NCBI GenBank assembly: GCA_963996245.1
Contig: CAXEIY010000213.1
Location: forward strand, 1,371-65,370
DNA length: 64,000 bases
Direction of reading: 5' to 3'
Source of the DNA: an uncultured Planctomycetia bacterium
GTDB lineage: Bacteria; Planctomycetota; Planctomycetia; CAXEIY01
The first letter of the stretch is position 1. Each line of letters begins with the position of its first letter. The position numbers and the translations under genes are program-made. Shown piece after piece: positions 19,038 through 56,761 of this stretch. Under the pieces are notes generated by a model that did no database searches, was not told where the DNA came from, and saw nothing but the letters and a program-made list of their open reading frames with translations.

Positions 19038-20504
19038 TCAGATAAGCACATTCTTCACAACACTAGCTTTCGTGACCGGGGCATCTGTCAACGTTTCATC
19101 GCGACCTGAATGGCGGTAACTCAAACGTTCATGGTCCAACCCCATCTGATGCAATATTGTCGCGTGAAGATCGGGCACACTGACCGTGTTTTCAACCGAC
19201 CTGTAACCTATTTCATCCGTAGCCCCGTGAACATAGCCGGATTTAAATCCACCACCAGCCAAAAGCAGTGAAAAGGCATTCCGGTTATGATCACGACCTG
19301 TTCCATTCTGTGAAACCGGTAATCGTCCAAATTCACCAGACCAGATAACAATCGTCTGCTCCAGTAATCCTCGCTGTTTGAGATCTCGAATCAGCGCAGC
19401 AGCGGGTTGATCGGTCTCCCGGCAGATTGTATTCAAAGAGTCTTGTGTTGCTTTATGACTATCCCATGGCTGGAACGGTTTGGGATGCACCTGAACAAAA
19501 CGCACACCTGATTCCACTAGTTTTCTTGCCATCAGACAGCGTAATCCATACGGGCGAGTTTTTTCATCGTCCAGACCATATTGTCTTTGAACAACTTTCG
19601 ACTCTTTTGAAATATCCAAAAGATTTTCTGCCTCCAGTTGCATTCGGCCGGCCAGTTCATAATTCTGAATACGTGTTTCCAATTCATTTTCATGTGGATA
19701 CCGCTTCTGATACATACGATTGATGCGGTCTAGAAATGTTCTGTTTTCCTGTTGTATTTTATAAGACCTTTTCTTTGCAGATCGAAGATTTAACACAGCC
19801 TCACCCTGCGTGTTGAATTCCGTACCTCGAAACAAAGAAGGCATCCATCCTGAACTCCACGTGAGCGTTCCACTCGTGTTGTAACCACGCGGATCCCGAA
19901 GCACCACATACGCTGGAAGATTGCTATTCTCGGTACCCAGCGCATAGCTGATCCAAGACCCAAAAGACGGCCGTCCCTGAAAAATACGTCCCGTCATAAA
20001 CATAATCAGCGCTTCGGTATGGTTGTTGTGATCGGAATACATCGATCGAATCATGCACAGATCATCCGCAATTGCACCCAGCTCTGGAATTACATCTGCC
20101 ATGGGCATTCCGGATTTACCGCAACGCCGAAAAGAAAAAGGACTCGCCATTAATTCATTTTTCTCACTACCACTCTGAAACATCTCTACTTTGAATGAAT
20201 GCTGTTTACCGTTGTATTTCTGAAGTTCTGGTTTGGGATCAAACAGATCCATCTGGCTGGGACCACCATTCTGCATCAACAGAATGACGGACTTCGCCTG
20301 GCCTGCAAATGACGAGTGCTTTGGACGTAGATCAAAAGATGGAAACTGTGATCCGATATCGCTGGAATGTCCTCGGGACAATTCCTCACCGCGCATTACC
20401 TGTGCCACCAGATTTCCAAAACTCAATCCTGTCAAATGGAGCATCTGTCGCCGGGAAAGAGATCGGCTGCAGGACTGCCGACACAACGGATTTGAAAGCA
20501 CCAT
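19038..20504 (-). CDS. DUF1501 domain protein (sulfatase-like fold), Tat signal
   Basis: It has a Tat leader 'RRQMLHLTGLSFG' and the typical DUF1501 C-terminus 'GGGFKSGYVHGATDEIGY...PDLHATILHQMGLDHERL'. It is paired with the adjacent DUF1549/DUF1553 gene. Confidence 0.85.
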   Translation of the reverse strand: MVLSNPLCRQSCSRSLSRRQMLHLTGLSFGNLVAQVMRGEELSRGHSSDIGSQFPSFDLRPKHSSFAGQAKSVILLMQNGGPSQMDLFDPKPELQKYNGKQHSFKVEMFQSGSEKNELMASPFSFRRCGKSGMPMADVIPELGAIADDLCMIRSMYSDHNNHTEALIMFMTGRIFQGRPSFGSWISYALGTENSNLPAYVVLRDPRGYNTSGTLTWSSGWMPSLFRGTEFNTQGEAVLNLRSAKKRSYKIQQENRTFLDRINRMYQKRYPHENELETRIQNYELAGRMQLEAENLLDISKESKVVQRQYGLDDEKTRPYGLRCLMARKLVESGVRFVQVHPKPFQPWDSHKATQDSLNTICRETDQPAAALIRDLKQRGLLEQTIVIWSGEFGRLPVSQNGTGRDHNRNAFSLLLAGGGFKSGYVHGATDEIGYRSVENTVSVPDLHATILHQMGLDHERLSYRHSGRDETLTDAPVTKASVVKNVLI

Positions 20505-20565
20505 AAAAAGATCCTTGTGTTAACTTTTCCTAATCGATACGTACCGTTGCTTATTTTCAAACATG

Positions 20566-23217
20566 TCACTCAACATAAAGAAATTCATTTGCACTCAACA
20601 ACATATGGCACAGTTCCTGGAGCGAGTGATCGCACGCCTGTGATTTTTCCATGTCCTTTTCCAACTGCAACTGATGGGCTTGACTCTCGAGAAAACTGAA
20701 ACTGGTTTCCCATTCGGAATCGGTCGGAAGACGGCAAAAGGCTAGCATGAACGCTTCGCGAATACGTAGCTTCTGGTTCGATCCAGCTCGCTCGATAACC
20801 CTTTTGGAAAACTGTACCGCCTGGTCGGAAATAAATTTTCCATTCACCATCAAGAGTGATTGTAAAACCACGGCAGAATGCTGACGCCGAGTGCAATTAT
20901 GAGCAACCAGTGGTTGGTCAAAAACACTGAGTTCACTTAATTGGTAATTCCGGCGGGCAAATATATACAGACTTCTCCTGTACTGGTCTGTTTTGTCGGT
21001 AAGTTTGTCGACGTTAATATCGACACTGCCATCCGAATGGGGTATCAGCGGGATCGGTGGTCCTCCGATCCGGTGCTCAAGCAGACCACTAGTCGCCAGA
21101 ACTCGATCTCGTATCACTTCTGACTCTAGTCGACGCAATGGCATGCGCCAGAGAAGTCGGTTTTCGGGATCCTTTTTGTATGGATCAGCAATCTTGCGTA
21201 CGGCCACTTTTAGTCGAGATCCCTGACGATAAGCGCTGGACCGAAGTATCAATCGATGCAGTTCTTTGAAACTCCAACCTCGATCCACAAACTCACAGGC
21301 TAGCCAGTCCAAAAGTTTGGGATGACTGGGCAAGGTACCGGAACGGCCAAAATTGTCCGGGGTTTCTACAATTCCTTTCCCAAAGTACTGCTGCCATACG
21401 CGATTAACAATTACCCTGGCTGTCAAAGGGTGATCGGGATGAGTTAACCAGTTTGCCAGCGCTAAACGCCTTCCACTACTTCCCGTTACCGATCCTTTTT
21501 CGGGTATCTCCAACCCCTGAATTACTCGTTCGAGTACCTTTGGGACACCAGGATTTACTGGGGCTCCCGGTGTCGTGTACTCTCCTCTGCGGAAAAGATA
21601 CGTAGATGGCACTGACCCTGGTTCCCAAAAAGCACGAATAATTCCGTAGGACTGTTTTCCCCGGGCGAGAGATTTTATCTGCTCCTTAAAAGCAGCGACT
21701 CTGGATCGATCCTTCTCGGACAATGCCCGGTCGATCTCCTCTGGACTCACCTCCAACTGCGTACTTAATTTCGACAAGAGGTATTTTTGGACTCCTGTTC
21801 TCTGATCTTCAGAAGTCTGAATAGCCTTTTTAAGATCCGCCCTGATCACCTCAGGCATTTCCTTCAACTTTGCTTCCAACAACCGTTTCTTGGTCTGCTG
21901 ATGGATACACCCTATCTGTTCTTCTGCTCTGCTAATCTCTTTTTCAATCTGGTCATTATTTATATCTATGCGATCTTTTTCACTTTTGGAAACATCCGCA
22001 ATCTGTCGCTCCGAACCCGGAATCCAGCGATGAACGTTGTATCCCGGTGTAAAACAGGCTGCGAGACGATAATAGTCTACATGTGAAATAGGATCGAACT
22101 TATGGTCGTGGCAGCGCGCGCAGTGAACCGTCAAACCAAGAATGTTGGTTGAAAAAGTCTGAAGCGTGTCGAAAAGCACTTGATATCGGATATCGGCTGT
22201 GTTGAGTTCTTGTTCATCGGTCACATCCGCAGATTGTCGGAGAAAACCGGTAGCGATTAACTGGTTCTTTATCTCTGGTGAAAAGGTTTTTGCATTTCGC
22301 CAATCCACTCGCTCATCCCCGGCAATCTGCTCCATCAGGAACTGATCATAAGACTTGTCCTCATTGAAAGCCGCCACCACATAGTCCCGATATTTCCACA
22401 TCCCCTCAGAAACTTTGATGATCTGAGCATCATTATCTGTACCTCGTGAATCGACATACCCTGCTGCGTCGAGCCAGTGACGGCCCCATCGTTCACCGTA
22501 ATGGGGGGACGCCAGAAGCTCATCTATGAGTCGCTCATATGATTCCGGTGACGAATCGGAAACAAACGCCCTTACTTGGTCCGGTCTGGGTGGTAGTCCA
22601 ATGACATCCAGAAAAACTCTTCTGACAAGCGTCTCTGGATCTGCGTCGGACAAGAATTGAAGACCTTGTGCTTCCAATTTATCCAGCAGAAACGCATCCA
22701 CGGGTGTACGAACAAGATTTTGATTCCGGACGCTCGGAACTGGATATCGACGTGGTTCCTGAAAGGCCCACCACTGCTTTTTGTGCTGCGGCAATTCTGA
22801 CACGGAAACTTCTGTGTTCAAAGGTTGATCAAATTGGGCAGAAGCACCCTCATCAATCCAGGATCGCAGTAGCTCTAAGTGCTGATTGGTTGGTTTCAGA
22901 GCATTTTCCGGTGGCATTTCACCAGATTTAATCTTTTCAATAATCAAACTCTCTTTAGACCTGCCTCTAACCAGTGCCGGACCACTCGTCCCACCTTTTA
23001 GCAACAGAGGCAAGGTGCGCATGTCCAGATCCCCCTCTAGTGCTTCACCACCATGACACTTCCAGCAGTAAGCCGTCAGAATGGGAACAATTTCTCGCTC
23101 GAAGGAGAGTGATTGTTGGGCCGGCTGTGCATGAACCAGGATAGGAATCATATTGCTGATGACAACAAAGCCGACCACGGAGAACCTTCTTTTCCGACTG
23201 ATTTCGTAACGGCTCAT
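20566..23217 (-). CDS. Planctomycete PSCyt1/PSCyt2(DUF1549)/PSD1(DUF1553) protein
   Basis: A signal peptide and the 'CWKCHGGE' PSCyt1 heme-like motif are present. DUF1549 ('RRVFLDVIGLPP') and DUF1553 ('CARCHDHKFDPISHVDYY') blocks follow. Confidence 0.85.
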   Translation of the reverse strand: MSRYEISRKRRFSVVGFVVISNMIPILVHAQPAQQSLSFEREIVPILTAYCWKCHGGEALEGDLDMRTLPLLLKGGTSGPALVRGRSKESLIIEKIKSGEMPPENALKPTNQHLELLRSWIDEGASAQFDQPLNTEVSVSELPQHKKQWWAFQEPRRYPVPSVRNQNLVRTPVDAFLLDKLEAQGLQFLSDADPETLVRRVFLDVIGLPPRPDQVRAFVSDSSPESYERLIDELLASPHYGERWGRHWLDAAGYVDSRGTDNDAQIIKVSEGMWKYRDYVVAAFNEDKSYDQFLMEQIAGDERVDWRNAKTFSPEIKNQLIATGFLRQSADVTDEQELNTADIRYQVLFDTLQTFSTNILGLTVHCARCHDHKFDPISHVDYYRLAACFTPGYNVHRWIPGSERQIADVSKSEKDRIDINNDQIEKEISRAEEQIGCIHQQTKKRLLEAKLKEMPEVIRADLKKAIQTSEDQRTGVQKYLLSKLSTQLEVSPEEIDRALSEKDRSRVAAFKEQIKSLARGKQSYGIIRAFWEPGSVPSTYLFRRGEYTTPGAPVNPGVPKVLERVIQGLEIPEKGSVTGSSGRRLALANWLTHPDHPLTARVIVNRVWQQYFGKGIVETPDNFGRSGTLPSHPKLLDWLACEFVDRGWSFKELHRLILRSSAYRQGSRLKVAVRKIADPYKKDPENRLLWRMPLRRLESEVIRDRVLATSGLLEHRIGGPPIPLIPHSDGSVDINVDKLTDKTDQYRRSLYIFARRNYQLSELSVFDQPLVAHNCTRRQHSAVVLQSLLMVNGKFISDQAVQFSKRVIERAGSNQKLRIREAFMLAFCRLPTDSEWETSFSFLESQAHQLQLEKDMEKSQACDHSLQELCHMLLSANEFLYVE

Positions 23218-28554: not shown

Positions 28555-31500
28555 TTATACGGTTTCAGCCGCTCTATCAGAACTACTGCGCCACAATCGA
28601 ATGGGCAACGAACCCAGTCCCACAAGTGCTAATTGACTGGTTGCAAACAAAAGTAGCCAATCCTGCGTGGAACTTAGAAATCCATAGGAATGCAACCCTA
28701 CTCCCAACAGGTTAACACCAAACCAGGACCATGCCGTTACAATATTTCCTGTAATGGCCAGTACTGCCACTCCCCGTTGTCGAATCATACCACCCCAACG
28801 TGCATGAAGGATTAGCGCATTCCATAGCACAATAATCAGAGCCCCATTTTCCTTGGGATCCCATCCCCAAAATCGGCCCCAAGACTGATCGGCCCATATC
28901 CCACCGAGAACCGTTCCGACAAAACTCAAGAGGGTTGCAAAACAAACGATGCCATAAATCATCCTCCCCAGTGTCTGCATTCCTTTTTGACTCAGAGTTT
29001 TAGTAAACAGTCCCAGAAGCACAAAAAGGATACCCAGAAAACCCGCAAGAAAGGTTGCCGAGTATCCAAAAGTGATACAGGTTACATGTGTTGCCAGCCA
29101 AAAATTGGTATCCAGAACCGCCTGCATCATTTCCATGGTATCGCCGTCACCGGCCAGTCCATCGGCAATGCGCAATGTCAGAAACCCTGTGACACCACAA
29201 ACGACATTACCAATACCATTACGAAATATCCCTTCCAGCAACATCGACATCACAACACATCCCCACCCGATAAAAATGGCAGAGGAATAGAGATTCGTAA
29301 CGGGGGGCCGTTCCTGCAAATACATACGTCCAACAAGCGCACCGGTATGAACAACCAAAGTCGGAACCATGATCCAGAATGCTGCTCGATTTAATGGACG
29401 ATTCCACCCTAACCATGACAGACAACTTAAGAGAAAGATTGCCACATACAAAACGGAACATCTGTTAAACGGGTCAAACGCATTGAACCGGACTTCCCAC
29501 TCAGCTTTTGTAAGCACCGGATCGATGTGATCCTGAAGTTGATTTCGATAGGATCTCAGCGAGCTATTGAATTTATTATGATCTCTTTGTGCATAAGTCC
29601 TCGAAAGATTAATCAGCGAAGTAACCGCCTCCTGCAATTCGTTCGCCTCACTCCGGTCACGGTTGCCTGCTGCCTGAATCACGGCATCGACTGCAGGTGA
29701 CCATTCACCTTCTTCTTCTAGCGGAGGAACCAGATGTGGCATGGGAAATCGCTTCATCATCTGATAGCGACGAACATCCTCCAGTAATTCTTCCTGACCT
29801 TTTTCCTGAAGAATCGAATGCGGTACAGCCAATCGCCAGAACAGTTGCAGATGTTCTGCCAGTGCCACCACTTGCTGATCGAAAACCGTGCGCTGCTTAG
29901 CATCAACCGAACGTGCTCGATTCGCTTCCCTTTCAAGCTCAATGATTTTATCCGGATCTCGAAATTCCTCGAGTGCATATCGAAACCGCTTCCGTTCCTT
30001 TAGCTCTAATAGATCCCGCACTTCTTCATTCGGAATCTTAAATACTTCATGTAAAAACGCTGTTTCGGTGTCAAACATGACATCCATCAACCACACTATG
30101 GCAGGGCTCCTTGCACCTTCATTATTCTCAAAATAATCACGACCAGAAATAATCGTGAGCGCATTACGTGCCAGCGTATCGAGCGGTTTTGCACGCCCTT
30201 GATACACAACGGGCATACGTCCAAACGCCTGAACATTCATAGAACTAGTATCTTCTGGAGTCCGCATGCTATAACCAAAAAATACGATTCCCAAAGCGCA
30301 TGCAACCGTCGCACACCACAAAGAAGGATCACTAAGATCCCAGACCGACTGGTTCTCCTTGTGTTGGACACCCCGACCCAGAAAACTGAAAATACCCAGA
30401 CCAAACTGTATCAGCATTCCAATAGAAACCAGCCCACAGGAAACATAGGGCATTAACCATCCAGGATTCTTCACTACCTGCAAAATGGTACCCCGATCCC
30501 CTGGAAGAAACGAGGACTGAAAAAATGTCTCACCCGAATAACGCAGAGGGTGATTCATATAAATGTTCACATCCCTCTCCACCCCCTGGTCGGGATCAAG
30601 CAGACGAACCCGGCTGGAATAGTTCCTAGGAGTATCCGTTCCGATATAAAGATCGTGCTTAAAATCTTCGAGATATACCGAATATGATTTGTAGCTTCGA
30701 CGAAATCTAAGGGCTACCTGATACGACGAACTTTTAATCGAAACAGGTTGCTCGTTGAAGTGCTGTGAAAACAAAAAAGTGCCGATTCTTTTTTGGGTAT
30801 TCTTTTGTAAAAGTCGGACATAGATAGACGCGATATCGACCTGCGATTCCGTACCGGTCACCTCAGGAGTTTCCCGGGCGACACTTGTACGACCGAAACC
30901 GGACGTTGCATGATTTTCGTCACTAACCAAAAATCCGACACGAAGTTTTTGATCTCCCAACTGAAATCCGTCGCGCGCATTGATGGCCGCAAGGGCCTCT
31001 CGGTGCGCCCGCATGCGCACCCATGCGACATTAGCGGTTAATTTCACCAGTGTGACCGTTTGTGAATCGAGTTCTATCTCACGAATTACTGGTTTTACGG
31101 ACTGATCGTCGAAAGGTGATATCGCGAGCTGATTAGCCCATCGATTCACGTGTTCCAGAACCGATTCCGAGTCATTCTCTCGCGATGTAGCGGTGACAAC
31201 AACCTGTGACTCTTCATGGTCTCCGAGATGAAACTCCACAAAACCCAGTTCAGAACCCGAATGCTGATGCCACTGCTCCGGAACATCCCATTCGATCGGT
31301 TTGCTGTTGCCAGAAAAACGGATCGATCGAACAAACTGCTCAAATTCGCGACTGTGCAACTTAACCTGTTCTCGGGGCCCGGCCAGTTTTAACAACCACG
31401 TTTCATGCTGACCCGACACAATCGCTCCCTGCACTTCCTGTACAAGCAGTATCGATTGCACAGAGCCGAAAGGCGAAAACAGACTTTCCAAATCGACCTT

Positions 31501-32250
31501 CGAATACGAAGAAGGGAACTGTTCCACTCGCAGAATTTCAGGAATCGTCTGGGAATTGACCATGTACCGAACCACTTCCACATCGAAAGGTAAATCGGCA
31601 TGTTCAATCCGTTGTGTATCAGACACGGAAGAAAATCCAAAAAACGATTTGATCTGACGCAGCCGATTTTCAGGAACAACAACAACGTCATCATCTTTAC
31701 CATCACGAGACCGTATTACGGCTAGTTCGGTCGTTCGGATGTCTTCTATATAGTTGGAACTTTCTCCTTCGACAATCGTCATATTGCCTTCAACGGCGCT
31801 CAATCCTGTTATAAGCTCGCCGAGTAACATTACGATTAAGCCACCGTGAATCAGCAAAACACCCGATCGCCTCCAATTGAGCTTGAATCGAATCGCATGG
31901 GCGGCCACCAAATTAATCAACATGGCGCTTCCTAGTAACCAGCCACCAAAAAACGGAAAGTGGTACGGCAGGTCATTCAGCCATGGAAACCAGCTTCCGA
32001 AACCGGGGATGTGATAAAAGATCCGAACGGGAAACCAGGCAAAAGTGAAATTCCTAAAATACTTGTGGACGACCGTCCAGATCCCCTCGTCCACCTGAAC
32101 CAGTGTTCCGCAGAATATAAGAATAACGGACAGAGCAACCAATATGACGGTTAGCTTCAGAGAGGCCAAAGGTGCAACCAGGTACCTTGCGATTTTCCAC
32201 AAGCTCGGCTGTTCAACCATGGCTTGATCAAAACGGGGCATTTCAGCCAT
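28555..32250 (-). CDS. ccsBA: Fused cytochrome c biogenesis protein CcsBA (ResB/Ccs1 N-terminal part + CcsA C-terminal part) with inserted periplasmic module
   Basis: The N-terminus '[23 protein letters not shown]' and the pre-TM block '[17 protein letters not shown]...[14 protein letters not shown]' match ResB/CcsB. The C-terminal half carries the CcsA WWD domain '[25 protein letters not shown]' and multiple TM helices with His residues. Confidence 0.8.
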   Translation of the reverse strand: [1231 protein letters not shown]

Positions 32251-32278
32251 TACATTCTCCTGGTTCGCCCTTGGACAT

Positions 32279-33388
32279 CTAAAAATGAACTGACTGTACC
32301 CACTCCTGAAAAGCAGTTTTATTTCTGCTCACAAGCTCCGACTCTCCTCGCATCTTGAAAAACCAGGTGCGATTATTGCGATTGTAAATCACTCCCAGTG
32401 TTCTCTCAGAGTTATTTTGCGATGCGGGTCCTGCAATTTCGACAAACGATGCTTGCTTTCCGTCAATTTCAAGTGTCTCAACCTCTGTCTGAATTTCCTG
32501 TTCTGTTGCTTTCTTAAGTCCCAATTCATCACGCCACCTGTTAACATTCGCAACCAGACCACCAGCCGCTCCTGACAATGGAATAGCCGTTACTTCCGCC
32601 TTCACTTCACCGTCACGTATGACAAAGGATGCAGCACGCATTCCACGGGGAGGCTGTGCAACCCAGCCCTCAGGCACTACGTGATACTGAAAATTGCCTT
32701 CTGTTGCTGTTTCACTACTGCTCTCGGGTACCGCCTGACTGCTGTTGAAAAATGGGGGCATCTGATTTCCACCCTCCACAGCTGTGCCTCTCATATCCAC
32801 AAGCGTTGCCGTCACCGCTTCGAGTTTCACCTCCTCAATCACCTGCGCGACCGATTGCTCATTGAAAGGAGGCAGGCCTATCTGACCCGCCCAGCGATTC
32901 ACATTTGCCAAAACTGAACCCGACTCCGATCCGAGCGCAGTAACGGTCACTATCAAAGGGTTATCCTCATGTTCTCCTAAATGAAATTCGGCAAAACGCA
33001 TCCCTGTCCCATCGTGTTGATGCCAGCTATCCGGTACATTCCAGTCGATGCGCTCACCGGTGTTCCCACCAAAACGAACAGACCTCACAAACCGGTCAAA
33101 GTCCTGATGGTGCATTCCGATCTGATCCAGTGGCCCCATAAGCTTAATGAACCATGTTCGATCCGGGTTGGGAATGATGGCACCCAGTAATCTTTGTTCC
33201 ACTGATTCAATTTCGGGTTTAACGGCTGATGATACCGCGTATCGCTCAATGCCAGGTTCCTCACAACCGATTAATCCAACGGCAGCCAGCCATAAGATCG
33301 ACGCCAAGAGAAATGGTGTATGGAAATGGGTGCAAAATCTCTGTAATACCAACATAATTAAACCGCACCGTGGAGATACTTTGACCAT
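32279..33388 (-). CDS. Lipoprotein paralogous to the periplasmic insert of CcsBA (internally duplicated, uncharacterised module)
   Basis: It has a lipobox 'AAVGLIGC'. Two internal repeats containing 'VANVNRW' are present. Blocks 'WFIKLMGP..FDRFVRSVRFGGN...WNVPDSWHQHDGTGMRFAEFHLGEHED' are nearly collinear with residues ~285-400 of the CcsBA protein. Confidence 0.6.
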   Translation of the reverse strand: MVKVSPRCGLIMLVLQRFCTHFHTPFLLASILWLAAVGLIGCEEPGIERYAVSSAVKPEIESVEQRLLGAIIPNPDRTWFIKLMGPLDQIGMHHQDFDRFVRSVRFGGNTGERIDWNVPDSWHQHDGTGMRFAEFHLGEHEDNPLIVTVTALGSESGSVLANVNRWAGQIGLPPFNEQSVAQVIEEVKLEAVTATLVDMRGTAVEGGNQMPPFFNSSQAVPESSSETATEGNFQYHVVPEGWVAQPPRGMRAASFVIRDGEVKAEVTAIPLSGAAGGLVANVNRWRDELGLKKATEQEIQTEVETLEIDGKQASFVEIAGPASQNNSERTLGVIYNRNNRTWFFKMRGESELVSRNKTAFQEWVQSVHF

Positions 33389-33796
33389 GGCTGTGAATCT
33401 GGTGACGTCTGGTATAACCGCAAAAGAAACGACCGGTCCGTGACGGAACTAATCTGGAACTCCGTTTCCCGATGTCAAAAATTACTGATTTACTTACGAA
33501 TTATAGCGCACGCGAGTTACAAAATACAGTAGAGATCCCCGGTGTCAGACGAGTAACAACTGGAATTACAGATCCACTGGATCCATATTCGGCCGACTTC
33601 TAGACAGACTTCTAAAATTCTTCTTCAACCAGAATGTGGAACAGCCCTAAAAACAAACGCTGATTCCACTGTCTGATGATGAGATTGAACTGGCAGTTCC
33701 ACTTCCAGAAGGTTAAAGGCTGTACCTAGCCCGCTATTTTGAAACGCTTGGATTTTTAAACTAACCGGTATCGGGAATCCTGCTTTTCAAATAGAA

Positions 33797-33832
33797 CAAA
33801 AAAACCCGGTTCTATGACGAGAACCGGGTTTA
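33797..33832 (-). terminator. Rho-independent terminator downstream of the ompA-like gene
   Basis: On the minus strand this reads AAACCCGGTTCT-cgtcat-AGAACCGGGTTT followed by TTTTTTGT, a GC-rich hairpin plus T-tract, 25 nt past the stop at 33857. Confidence 0.7.
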
Positions 33833-33856: not shown

Positions 33857-34681
33857 CTAACGATTGAGCCTGTCATCCATCGCTACGTTTGTATCGGGCA
33901 GTGGATTAGCTGCCTGAGCACGGTCCAGACTACGTCCTGCCACTGCAGCATCCGGAGCAAGGACGTAAATTTCCACACGGCGGTTCCTTTGGCGGCTACC
34001 GTTTGTGCTGTTCGCCTCGACAGGTTGGTGCTCACCATAGCCCGCTACCCCCATTCGGGAGGCACGCACTCCGGAATCCTGAAGAAAGTCCTGCACGGAA
34101 ATAGCACGATGGGCACTTAGATGCCAATTCGTAGGATGTTTTTCCCGTGTCGCAGTTCTCGCTATCGGACGGTCGTCGGTATGACCTACGATCATGATAT
34201 TGTAATCATATACCTCACGTTCATTAACAATATTGGCGAATTCGCCAAGTAGACTGCGTACTTCGGTGCGCAGTTCATCCTTACCGGTTGAAAAAAGAAT
34301 GTCGGAATTGAGCTTACTGATTCCAGTAGCGGGATCAAACTCAAAGCTTTCCGGATAGCGTCTAGCAAGATCTGCCAAACGATTACTTGTTTCAGAAGGC
34401 AGGGGATTGTTTGGATCCCACTGGTTGCGCAACCCGTTCAGCTGGTCTCGAAGACTCAGCAACTCATCTTCACTCATCCGGGTTTCTTCTGCCAATTCGC
34501 GGGCATGACGATCAAGATCATGCTTTTCGGCCATCGTGGAACGTAAACGTGCCGTTAGGCTTCGATTGACTTCCTGGCAGCGCGCCAGCTGATTTTGTGG
34601 AACCATCGCACAACCCGCAGACAACACGCCAGCGGTAAGTGCGATAACGGGAAAGAGCTGATTATACCCACTACGTATCAT
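33857..34681 (-). CDS. OmpA/MotB-domain lipoprotein
   Basis: The C-terminal OmpA-like peptidoglycan-binding domain 'IVGHTDDRP...NRRVEIYV' is present. The start was set at the internal Met (ATG at 34681) that gives lipoprotein signal 'VIALTAGVLSAGC'. Confidence 0.75.
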   Translation of the reverse strand: MIRSGYNQLFPVIALTAGVLSAGCAMVPQNQLARCQEVNRSLTARLRSTMAEKHDLDRHARELAEETRMSEDELLSLRDQLNGLRNQWDPNNPLPSETSNRLADLARRYPESFEFDPATGISKLNSDILFSTGKDELRTEVRSLLGEFANIVNEREVYDYNIMIVGHTDDRPIARTATREKHPTNWHLSAHRAISVQDFLQDSGVRASRMGVAGYGEHQPVEANSTNGSRQRNRRVEIYVLAPDAAVAGRSLDRAQAANPLPDTNVAMDDRLNR

Positions 34682-34905
34682 GTGATCCGACTCCTTTCGA
34701 ATCGACACGCAAATGCCAATTTCTTGCTTCGCGTTAACCTCGAACAAACTGGTTCTAATGGCATACCGAGCGACGGTCCTTCGTCGACGATTTACTTCTG
34801 CCACACAATCCTTTTCTACTTTTTCGCGTATAAGAAACCTGTACACACGCGTGCAACCCAGCTCTCCTACACATTCATACCCTTACTAAGATTTTCTGCT
34901 GCTTA

Positions 34906-35832
34906 TCAAAATAAGTTCGCAATCATATCAATTACGGGACTCGTCAGTTGATTTGGTTGATGAGGACTCCACAGAGTTCGAACCAACTCCAACATCAAAA
35001 CACTCGCAAAAGCCGTGACAACAGTAGTACAGGTTAAACCAACCAATACAATCGTGCTCCAACCGGTTTCCTGAGCTCGCATTGAAGGCACCTGGGCAGC
35101 GAAGTCACTTTCACTGTCTTCACTCAATCCAGCTGTCATCCCGACATCATCGCTTTCATCCAGCATCACTTCCGAATGGTCGGCAAGTGCGGTAGCTGCT
35201 GCGGGATCAACCGCTTCATCTTCATCGAGGGAAATCACTTGTGTTTCGTTATCCGCGGGAGCTTCATCGAGAGATTCAAGTTCAAAATCAGAATTAACAG
35301 CAAGGTCAACTTCCGTTGCATCTTCCAGCTCAAGTACCGGAACTTCGAAGTCTGTTTCCAGCAAATCGTCACTCATTTCCTCACCGGCAGCCGGTTGCTC
35401 AAGCGAAATACCGCTGTCAGCGGGTTGTTCAAGAGAGATACCACTGTCAGAAAGTGCGTCTCCACCGTCTTCGCCTTCATCGGTTACCAGCACCAGATCA
35501 CTGTCGAAGGGATTGTCATCGGCCCCTTCATCGCCACTGTCTACTAGCAGCACATCGCTGTCGCCACCTTCTGGCTCATCAAAGGTAATTTCCACATCAC
35601 TGTCAGCCGCAATATCATCCAATATCAGAACCTCTTCTTCATCCGAAGTTTTTGCCTCGGAATCACCCGTGCCCTGCTGCTCAGCCAACGAATGTACGTC
35701 TTGGGCACGAATTTTCGACATCCCCTGATCCATAAACGTTTTCAATGATCCGTCATCGATGAGCGTCTTAAGCGCATCATCAGAAATGCCCAGTTTGGAC
35801 GCAGCTTCTTCTAGGGTGTAATATTTCGCCAT
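34906..35832 (-). CDS. Excisionase/MerR-type HTH protein with long polyacidic linker and C-terminal TM anchor
   Basis: The N-terminus 'YYTLEEAASKLGISDDALKTLIDDGSLKTF...KIRAQDV' fits the excisionase-family HTH. About 200 aa of D/E-rich low complexity follow. The C-terminal helix 'IVLVGLTCTTVVTAFASVLMLELV' is hydrophobic. Confidence 0.55.
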   Translation of the reverse strand: MAKYYTLEEAASKLGISDDALKTLIDDGSLKTFMDQGMSKIRAQDVHSLAEQQGTGDSEAKTSDEEEVLILDDIAADSDVEITFDEPEGGDSDVLLVDSGDEGADDNPFDSDLVLVTDEGEDGGDALSDSGISLEQPADSGISLEQPAAGEEMSDDLLETDFEVPVLELEDATEVDLAVNSDFELESLDEAPADNETQVISLDEDEAVDPAAATALADHSEVMLDESDDVGMTAGLSEDSESDFAAQVPSMRAQETGWSTIVLVGLTCTTVVTAFASVLMLELVRTLWSPHQPNQLTSPVIDMIANLF

Positions 35833-56687: not shown

Positions 56688-56761
56688 GGCGCCGTAGCCA
56701 AGTGGACCAAGGCAGCGGATTGCAAATCCGCGATTCGTGGGTTCGAATCCCACCGGCGCCT
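56688..56761 (+). tRNA. tRNA-Cys (anticodon GCA)
   Basis: A cloverleaf is visible. The 7-bp acceptor stem is GGCGCCG/CGGCGCC. The anticodon stem GCGGA/TCCGC encloses the loop TTGCAAA, giving anticodon GCA. The T-arm is GGGTTCGAATCCC. Length is 74 nt. Confidence 0.85.

Follow-up and report, generated by a model that had tools for sequence, protein, structure and literature searches.

Locus organization

We analysed a stretch of 64,000 nucleotides (nt), hereafter the window, from an uncultured Planctomycetia bacterium (GenBank assembly GCA_963996245.1, contig CAXEIY010000213.1, positions 1,371 to 65,370 of the forward strand). The analysis concerns two genes that follow each other on its reverse strand: a gene for a predicted lipoprotein and, directly 3' of it, ccsBA, which encodes a fused System II cytochrome c synthase with a lipoprotein-type module inserted in one of its periplasmic loops. 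The features of both genes are listed below with their positions in the window and the strand; TM denotes a transmembrane segment and RRM an RNA recognition motif.

32279..33388, -, lipoprotein gene, 369 residues, two tandem PsbP/Mog1/LpqN-like domains, candidate accessory subunit of System II (from open reading frame, homologues and fold)
33263..33388, -, predicted signal peptide with lipobox (…AAVGLIG-C42), Cys42 kept by 61 of 61 homologues
32783..33199, -, domain 1, residues 64-202, hairpin-plus-helices element before the sheet, source-like copy of the CcsBA module
32282..32692, -, domain 2, residues 233-369, elements of domain 1 in predicted permuted order, the sheet preceding the hairpin plus helices
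32251..32278, -, intergenic spacer, 28 nt, with a Shine-Dalgarno-like GGAG motif (read from the sequence)
28555..32250, -, ccsBA, fused System II cytochrome c synthase, 1231 residues (from open reading frame, Pfam, NCBIfam and the match to 7s9y)
31549..32250, -, CcsB part, residues 1-234, TM1 to TM3 (His118, His135) and start of the periplasmic domain, ending at the conserved VVRYMVNS
31435..31548, -, N-terminal half of the predicted RRM, residues 235-272, beta1-alpha1-beta2
31033..31434, -, lipoprotein-type module, residues 273-406, between strands beta2 and beta3 of the RRM
30925..31032, -, C-terminal half of the predicted RRM, residues 407-442, beta3-alpha2-beta4
30361..30924, -, rest of the CcsB periplasmic domain (Pfam ResB core, MNHPLRY…QVVKNPGW) and TM4, residues 443-630
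29461..30360, -, TM5 and periplasmic domain of the CcsA part, residues 631-930, with the GRAKPLDTLAR motif, homologous to its counterpart in H. hepaticus CcsBA
28555..29460, -, CcsA core, residues 931-1231, with His1055, His1149 and His1187 (Pfam, alignment with 7s9y)
28837..28881, -, WWD haem-handling motif, residues 1124-1138 (alignment with 7s9y)
33521..33548, -, sigma-70-like promoter match 5' of the lipoprotein gene, weak consensus match only (9 of 12 positions)
33802..33831, -, strong terminator-like hairpin, 12-bp stem then T-run, 3' of an OmpA-like gene, 5' boundary of the operon

The lipoprotein gene followed by ccsBA is a two-gene operon. The GGAG motif in the spacer is consistent with a bicistronic arrangement, and the hairpin after the OmpA-like gene on one side, together with the convergent orientation of the gene downstream of ccsBA on the other, sets the two reading frames apart as a unit of their own. 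Promoter matches of the kind listed are no commoner here than in shuffled sequence.

The fused cytochrome c synthase

Judged by its sequence, ccsBA encodes a System II cytochrome c synthase in a single polypeptide, as the original prediction had stated. Along its 1231 residues the protein corresponds to ResB and then to CcsA, and Pfam recognises both domains within the one open reading frame (ResB, E = 6.8e-15; Cytochrom_C_asm at residues 985-1187, E = 4.1e-23). Its closest solved relative is the CcsBA of H. hepaticus (cryogenic electron microscopy chain 7s9y, E = 2.8e-45). The WWD motif reads WGRFWGWDPKENGAL and spans residues 1124-1138. His1055, His1149 and His1187 align with His761, His858 and His897 of 7s9y, and His135 aligns with a histidine in the CcsB part; the aligned histidines would have the P-His and TM-His roles. 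The NCBIfam equivalog model for cytochr_II_ccsB (TIGR03144) matches residues 962-1190 with 128.2 bits (E = 4e-37), which is below its cutoff of 187.6 bits, as expected for a divergent fused protein.

Residues 148-603 contain no hydrophobic segment and the loop between TM2 and TM3 (RFKLNWRRSG) is positively charged, so that the whole loop that bears the insert is predicted to lie outside the cytoplasm. This agrees with the large periplasmic domains in both halves of the solved CcsBA structures (PMC13645880).

The cassette inserted in the CcsB part

The original prediction had placed a module shared with the upstream gene inside the periplasmic loop of ResB, at nt 30990..31407. The segment is real, but its position has to be corrected to nt 31033..31434 (residues 273-406). 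It is also only the inner part of an insertion of ~208 residues (residues 235-442, nt 30925..31548), and the split RRM that encloses it had been overlooked. Two relatives, a fused protein of 1113 residues (L002) and a split ResB of 441 residues (L001), can be aligned to either side of a gap: in them only ~10-20 residues or fewer separate VVRYMVNS (…233) from the counterpart of the segment that begins at residue 443. It is this gap that identifies residues 235-442 as an insertion.

The sequence comparison bears out that the segment duplicates a module of the neighbouring gene. BLASTP aligned residues 226-404 of CcsBA with residues 47-199 of the lipoprotein (E = 4e-42), and the module alone (residues 272-406) matched lipoprotein residues 69-199 with 48% identity (E = 7e-46). 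The inserted copy is nearest to domain 1 of its own neighbour, with 145 bits compared to at most 109 bits for other homologues. The recurrence had been claimed for two copies in the lipoprotein. It is strong for domain 1, whereas the second copy (residues 238-320) showed only a weak match (23% identity, E = 2e-5 to 6e-5).

In the intact protein Pfam RRM_1 matched residues 240-272 (26.3 bits, the N-terminal half alone) and an ELAV-type NCBIfam model matched residues 408-444. With residues 273-406 spliced out, the flanks matched the RRM_1 profile (PF00076) over positions 1-70 of 70 (E = 5.8e-10, 39.3 bits compared to a cutoff of 20.7 bits). This full-length match suggests that the cassette is an RRM whose beta2-beta3 loop houses the lipoprotein-type module. 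In an AlphaFold2 model of residues 226-450 the module reached values of 82-96 in the predicted local distance difference test (pLDDT), and strands beta2 and beta3 of the RRM were continuous into the first and last strands of the module. The folds assigned to the inserted copy and to the RRM are predictions from sequence homology.

The full-length RRM_1 match, and the fact that the best PDB sequence matches of the spliced flanks are HuR (ELAV), PABP and PTB, could be taken to mean that the RRM is a functional RNA binder which ties RNA to cytochrome c maturation. We regard this as hardly credible. The loop is predicted to be periplasmic from its charge and hydrophobicity (see also PMC13645880), and a domain of 134 residues occupies the beta2-beta3 loop. 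In the alignment with HuR the RNP2 motif is L-R-V-E-Q-F, with Arg and no aromatic residue at position 2, and RNP1 is A-N-V-A-W-V-R-M, with Ala at position 1 and Val at position 3; only Trp409 (position 5) is retained. By this alignment the RRM is degenerate, with its canonical RNP positions mostly lost.

The lipoprotein and its family

The 369-residue protein is a predicted bacterial lipoprotein. Its homologues have a hydrophobic leader followed by the invariant lipobox cysteine in all 61 aligned sequences, and the lipobox glycine is nearly invariant. The hairpin-plus-helices element precedes the sheet in the CcsBA copy as it does in domain 1. Domain 2, in which the order is reversed, we read as a circular permutation of the domain 1 arrangement. 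Three motifs are conserved across the homologues and occur twice each: WFFK-x-x-GP, W-x-x-P-x-x-W and N-V-N-R-W-R. A joint alignment of CcsBA homologues and lipoproteins was discarded because the lipoproteins spread along the whole protein.

The lipoprotein structurally matches solved members of the PsbP/Mog1/LpqN-like fold. At the level of sequence profiles, Pfam gave neither a PsbP nor an Lpp-LpqN hit for the protein of the window; among its homologues there were matches below threshold, to PsbP in 11 of 61 (best E = 8.5e-4) and to Lpp-LpqN in 3 of 61. No Pfam or NCBIfam family matches the lipoprotein. The original prediction had named a common annotated domain unrelated to cytochrome maturation as the finding that would speak against it; no Pfam or NCBIfam model covers the module, and its fold is a generic one. 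A word-indexed homologue search with the lipoprotein returned more than 3,500 matches, all of them unnamed or hypothetical. When the insert was the query, again as plain letters, this type of search gave no match, probably because too few words of five residues are shared, and was replaced by an exhaustive HMMER search, which found 2,320 cluster representatives (clusters at 50% identity). Several family members of 490-550 residues (P0200, P0206, P0232, P0257, P0275 and L066:6001-7473) match over four or five stretches and so seem to contain three modules, compared to the two described here.

Apart from the lipobox cysteine, the 61 homologues conserve no Cys and likewise no His, Met or Tyr. This argues against thiol-redox or haem-ligand roles. 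A ResA-like substitute for the thiol-redox helpers was ruled out on the grounds that there is no conserved cysteine beyond the lipobox. A second possibility is a module with haem or some other hydrophobic compound as its ligand, which would serve as a periplasmic haem chaperone or protector, like CcmE of System I. The Arg and Trp of the conserved N-x-N-R-W-R helix could conceivably contact the propionates, but the conserved residues offer no obvious axial ligand or covalent site, and in System II haem reaches the WWD site through a channel within CcsBA, with no soluble carrier involved (PMC13645880). We therefore consider haem binding very unlikely. The original prediction had proposed apocytochrome or haem handling, and the haem part of that proposal finds no support in these residues.

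Conservation of the gene pair

The lipoprotein family is encoded immediately upstream of ccsB or ccsBA throughout Planctomycetota and Verrucomicrobiota. We scanned one genome per GTDB species with an alignment of seven sequences as the query, which returned 80 loci. The taxon labels are those of metagenome bins, and the relatives of the window are metagenome assemblies. Most loci belong to Planctomycetota (Gemmataceae, Pirellulales, Planctomycetales, Phycisphaerae), ~9 belong to Verrucomicrobiota, and the bin labels of a few others are odd. The contig of one locus (L042) stops too early to be informative; in 78 of the remaining 79 loci ResB starts directly 3' of the lipoprotein gene. Thus the adjacency, whose loss in related genomes would have counted against the original prediction, is kept. 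Among these relatives the fused form of the synthase prevails, with 48 loci compared to 24 that have the split form. The distance between the two genes ranges from a 4-nt overlap to 5 nt in L001, L002, L089 and one contig of the Joint Genome Institute (JGI), and the flanking genes of these loci all differ.

We also approached the question in reverse, starting from CcsBA. Both loci of the Planctomycetes-Verrucomicrobia-Chlamydiae (PVC) type, L089 and L090, have the lipoprotein gene upstream, and no such gene adjoins CcsBA in the distant non-PVC locus L091. In L035:6001-7821 the lipoprotein reading frame runs in frame into the start of ResB and is then interrupted by a frameshift; this is probably an assembly indel and not a real fusion.

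The only locus with the lipoprotein gene and no ccsB nearby is L025. Here a homologue of 468 residues (L025:5691-7097) is followed by a gluconolactonase fragment and a DinB-type polymerase, in a metagenome-assembled genome (MAG) labelled Actinomycetota. Such a locus is what one would expect if the lipoprotein served the envelope in general and took no part in cytochrome maturation; the adjacency would then be historical and the two internal copies neutral products of recombination between neighbours. The generic fold fits this explanation too, and the HTH_17 and OmpA-like pair that is often found upstream might suggest a broader envelope neighbourhood. It is nevertheless a most improbable explanation: the adjacency persists over two phyla amid flanking genes that are all different, the start of one gene overlaps or almost touches the stop of the other, the inserted copies preserve both the reading frame and the residues that are invariant in the family, and the insertion is under purifying selection (see below).

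Extent of the insertion and a second fusion

With the insert as the query, only lipoprotein genes were matched in the 80 loci. The insertion in ResB was present only in contigs of the same species (L004, L005 and L088, 95-98% identical). L004 and L005 (Logan DRR683879 and DRR683875) are independent assemblies of a close relative, and both break in ccsBA at codon 1135. Among 56 CcsBA homologues the RRM occurs only in P0121 (98% identical), for which the precomputed Pfam annotation lists PF00076. A tblastn search with the RRM for RRM-bearing ResB elsewhere gave none in 86 loci. In the HMMER search, which covered 1.84 billion representatives, the best 150 of the 2,320 matches cover the module only and none of them reaches the RRM flanks.

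The inserted copy differs from that of L004 by 20 synonymous and 6 non-synonymous changes, a ratio of non-synonymous to synonymous rates (dN/dS) of 0.085 that is similar to the rest of the gene; the differences from L088 are too few to say much. All 10 columns that are invariant across 35 domain 1 sequences are kept in it. The low dN/dS shows that the insertion is maintained under purifying selection, and the grafted copy looks functional. An assembly chimera is ruled out by the presence of the insertion in independent assemblies (L004, L005, L088), its reading frame and the low dN/dS. Recent foreign DNA is likewise ruled out, as the GC content of the insert is unremarkable (0.50 compared to 0.476 in the gene).

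A second fusion was found in another assembly. The fused CcsBA P0128 (L087:2768-6340) has a lipoprotein-type module at residues ~642-800, in the periplasmic domain of the CcsA part. This module is 56% identical to the lipoprotein encoded directly upstream (L087:1564-2649), with 180 bits compared to 115 bits for the next best. Since each graft is nearest to its own neighbour and the two sit in different loops, a module of the neighbouring lipoprotein was copied into the synthase twice, independently.

Other domains were also encountered in the periplasmic loops of CcsBA, which are a place where domains gather: the RRM with its PsbP-like module, a PDZ domain and possibly an insert resembling acyl carrier protein (ACP). 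The PDZ domain lies at residues 679-740 of the fused CcsBA P0145 (L089:4001-7942), in the periplasmic region of the CcsA part (PDZ_6, E = 6.6e-9), and the lipoprotein gene of this locus ends 5 nt before the synthase gene. The ACP-like insert of ~70 residues (L074:3975-4201, Planctomycetaceae MAG JBLFXD010000455.1) occupies the same CcsB loop site as the cassette of the window; it matches positions 3-66 of 67 of the Pfam PP-binding profile with E = 0.0064, which is below the cutoff.

Other features of the window

5' of the lipoprotein gene lie the gene for the OmpA-like protein (33857..34846, -) and a gene whose product, an acidic protein anchored in the membrane, begins with an HTH_17 domain (34906..35832, -). 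An HTH_17 gene is also found upstream of the lipoprotein in three other loci (L089, L090 and L025). Further away, at 19038-23217 (-), a DUF1501 gene stands beside a gene for an 883-residue PSCyt1/PSCyt2/PSD1 protein (20566..23217). The two are a typical planctomycete c-type cytochrome pair, and probably of a type that the synthase has as its substrate. The sole Rfam match in the window is a tRNA gene at 56688-56761 (+).

Proposed role of the lipoprotein and of the grafted copy

In all likelihood, System II of these phyla has the lipoprotein as a periplasmic accessory subunit that had not been described. The accessory role put forward in the original prediction gains from the synteny in 78 of 79 loci, from the lack of annotation for the family and from the independent fusion in P0128; the role itself is deduced from these observations. 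We have good confidence that the lipoprotein and CcsBA are functional partners. We propose that the membrane-anchored lipoprotein docks onto CcsB and CcsA at their periplasmic domains, and that the grafted copy would be an extra unit with the same activity, tethered in cis. The RRM would then be a structural scaffold and not an RNA binder, its beta2-beta3 hairpin extending as a stalk that holds the module. The activity is most probably protein handling at the outer face, which may consist in holding or presenting unfolded apocytochromes or in stabilising or gating the open chamber where haem is attached. Planctomycetota and Verrucomicrobiota have unusually many large c-type cytochromes, many of them of PSCyt type. 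Three lines of evidence favour apocytochrome handling or chamber gating: members of the fold family are outer-face protein adaptors of membrane complexes, a peptide-binding PDZ domain was added on the same face in P0145, and no redox or haem-ligand residues are conserved. Docking of the apocytochrome and the trigger of chamber opening are stated as open questions (PMC13645880). For the mechanism as such, apocytochrome handling or chamber gating, our proposal is a tentative one.

The lipoprotein could instead be an assembly or stability factor of the membrane complex, comparable to CyanoP and the PsbP-like proteins at the lumenal face of photosystem II and NDH, with no contact to substrate or haem, and the graft would then rigidify the periplasmic domain of CcsB. 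The synteny and the fusions fit this as well as they fit the accessory role in protein handling, and a family that conserves no ligand-type residues is in keeping with it. It leaves unexplained, on the other hand, why a peptide-binding PDZ domain should sit on the same face in P0145 and why the number of modules varies from two to three. On balance we consider a purely stabilising role less likely than not, but nearly as likely as apocytochrome handling or chamber gating; haem binding is less likely than either.

Several observations weigh against the combined explanation. The residues conserved in the lipoprotein family offer no chemistry that could be read from them, and the PsbP/Mog1 fold is generic and specifies no ligand. 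The insertion is confined to one lineage among more than 130 CcsB and CcsBA sequences and is thus dispensable in general. Neighbouring genes can recombine by closeness alone, so the two fusions may partly reflect opportunity. L025 has the lipoprotein gene and no synthase. The AlphaFold2 model of the RRM flanks shows alpha1, beta2, beta3 and alpha2 but no beta1 or beta4, with pLDDT values of 33-67 obtained without alignment depth; the RRM fold therefore rests on the sequence. Fold searches with the model of the insert gave only weak, uninformative matches. These searches used the insert model alone, and circular permutation is probably the reason for their weakness. Taking both sides together we favour, with moderate confidence, an operon that encodes the synthase and an accessory partner, of which a tethered copy has been grafted into the synthase.

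System II is usually described as minimal, consisting of CcsB, CcsA and thiol-redox helpers, and it is not known to have an apocytochrome receptor or holdase. A far-reaching version of our proposal would make the PsbP-like lipoprotein an obligatory, hitherto unnoticed third subunit of the System II synthase in Planctomycetota and Verrucomicrobiota that acts as such a receptor or holdase, and the RRM-enclosed copy the first known RRM_1-family scaffold outside the cytoplasm; we put this forward as a doubtful possibility. In the literature, of which our coverage was incomplete, we found nothing that links such a lipoprotein to cytochrome c biogenesis, no PsbP-like partner grafted into a synthase and no description of a periplasmic RRM_1-family domain. 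A lipoprotein that stands beside the synthase across two phyla and was copied into it twice is a concrete, testable candidate for the missing periplasmic partner, and it gives a first functional lead for an unannotated family of ~2,300 sequence clusters.

Comparison with known systems

The synthase is ordinary, unlike its proposed partner lipoprotein and the graft. The CcsBA proteins of H. hepaticus (PDB 7S9Y/7S9Z) and B. thetaiotaomicron (PMC13645880) are likewise single polypeptides with the CcsB part followed by the CcsA part, and the WWD motif, the aligned histidines and the GRxKPxxTLA periplasmic region are common to them and the protein of the window. Variable extra domains in the periplasmic domain of CcsB were already known, such as a beta-barrel insertion in H. 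hepaticus whose role is unknown (PMC13645880). In the window, by contrast, the extra domain is a predicted RRM that encloses a PsbP-like module copied from the neighbouring gene, and the gene of the enzyme has a dedicated lipoprotein gene upstream as its companion.

PsbP, CyanoP and PsbP-like proteins (e.g. PnsL1 of the chloroplast NDH) resemble the lipoprotein in being p-side accessories of membrane complexes, and CyanoP is also a lipoprotein. Identity to the PsbP family is only 9-16%, however, the lipoprotein of the window is a tandem pair with one copy apparently circularly permuted, and a cytochrome c synthase takes the place of the photosystem or NDH as its partner. LpqN of M. tuberculosis (PDB 6E5D) is likewise a lipoprotein and works with the MmpL transporters, which are large inner-membrane proteins with periplasmic domains. 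It differs in being a single-domain protein (9% identity) that belongs to another pathway, cell-envelope lipid export.

Among the cytochrome maturation factors, CcmI and CcmH of System I have the role that we propose here, a periplasm-facing presentation of apocytochromes. This is a functional analogy only: there is no kinship in sequence or fold, CcmI being a TPR protein and CcmH a thiol-redox protein, and the role of the lipoprotein is an inferred one. ResA/CcsX and CcdA are also helpers of System II that act with CcsB and CcsA. In contrast to ResA/CcsX, which has a thioredoxin fold, and to the DsbD-like membrane protein CcdA, the lipoprotein has no conserved cysteine beyond the lipobox and thus cannot substitute for them. 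The cassette, finally, resembles RRM_1 (PF00076) in that its flanks without the module match the full-length profile above the gathering score, whereas it is split by a domain of 134 residues, lies in a predicted periplasmic loop and has mostly non-canonical RNP1 and RNP2 motifs.

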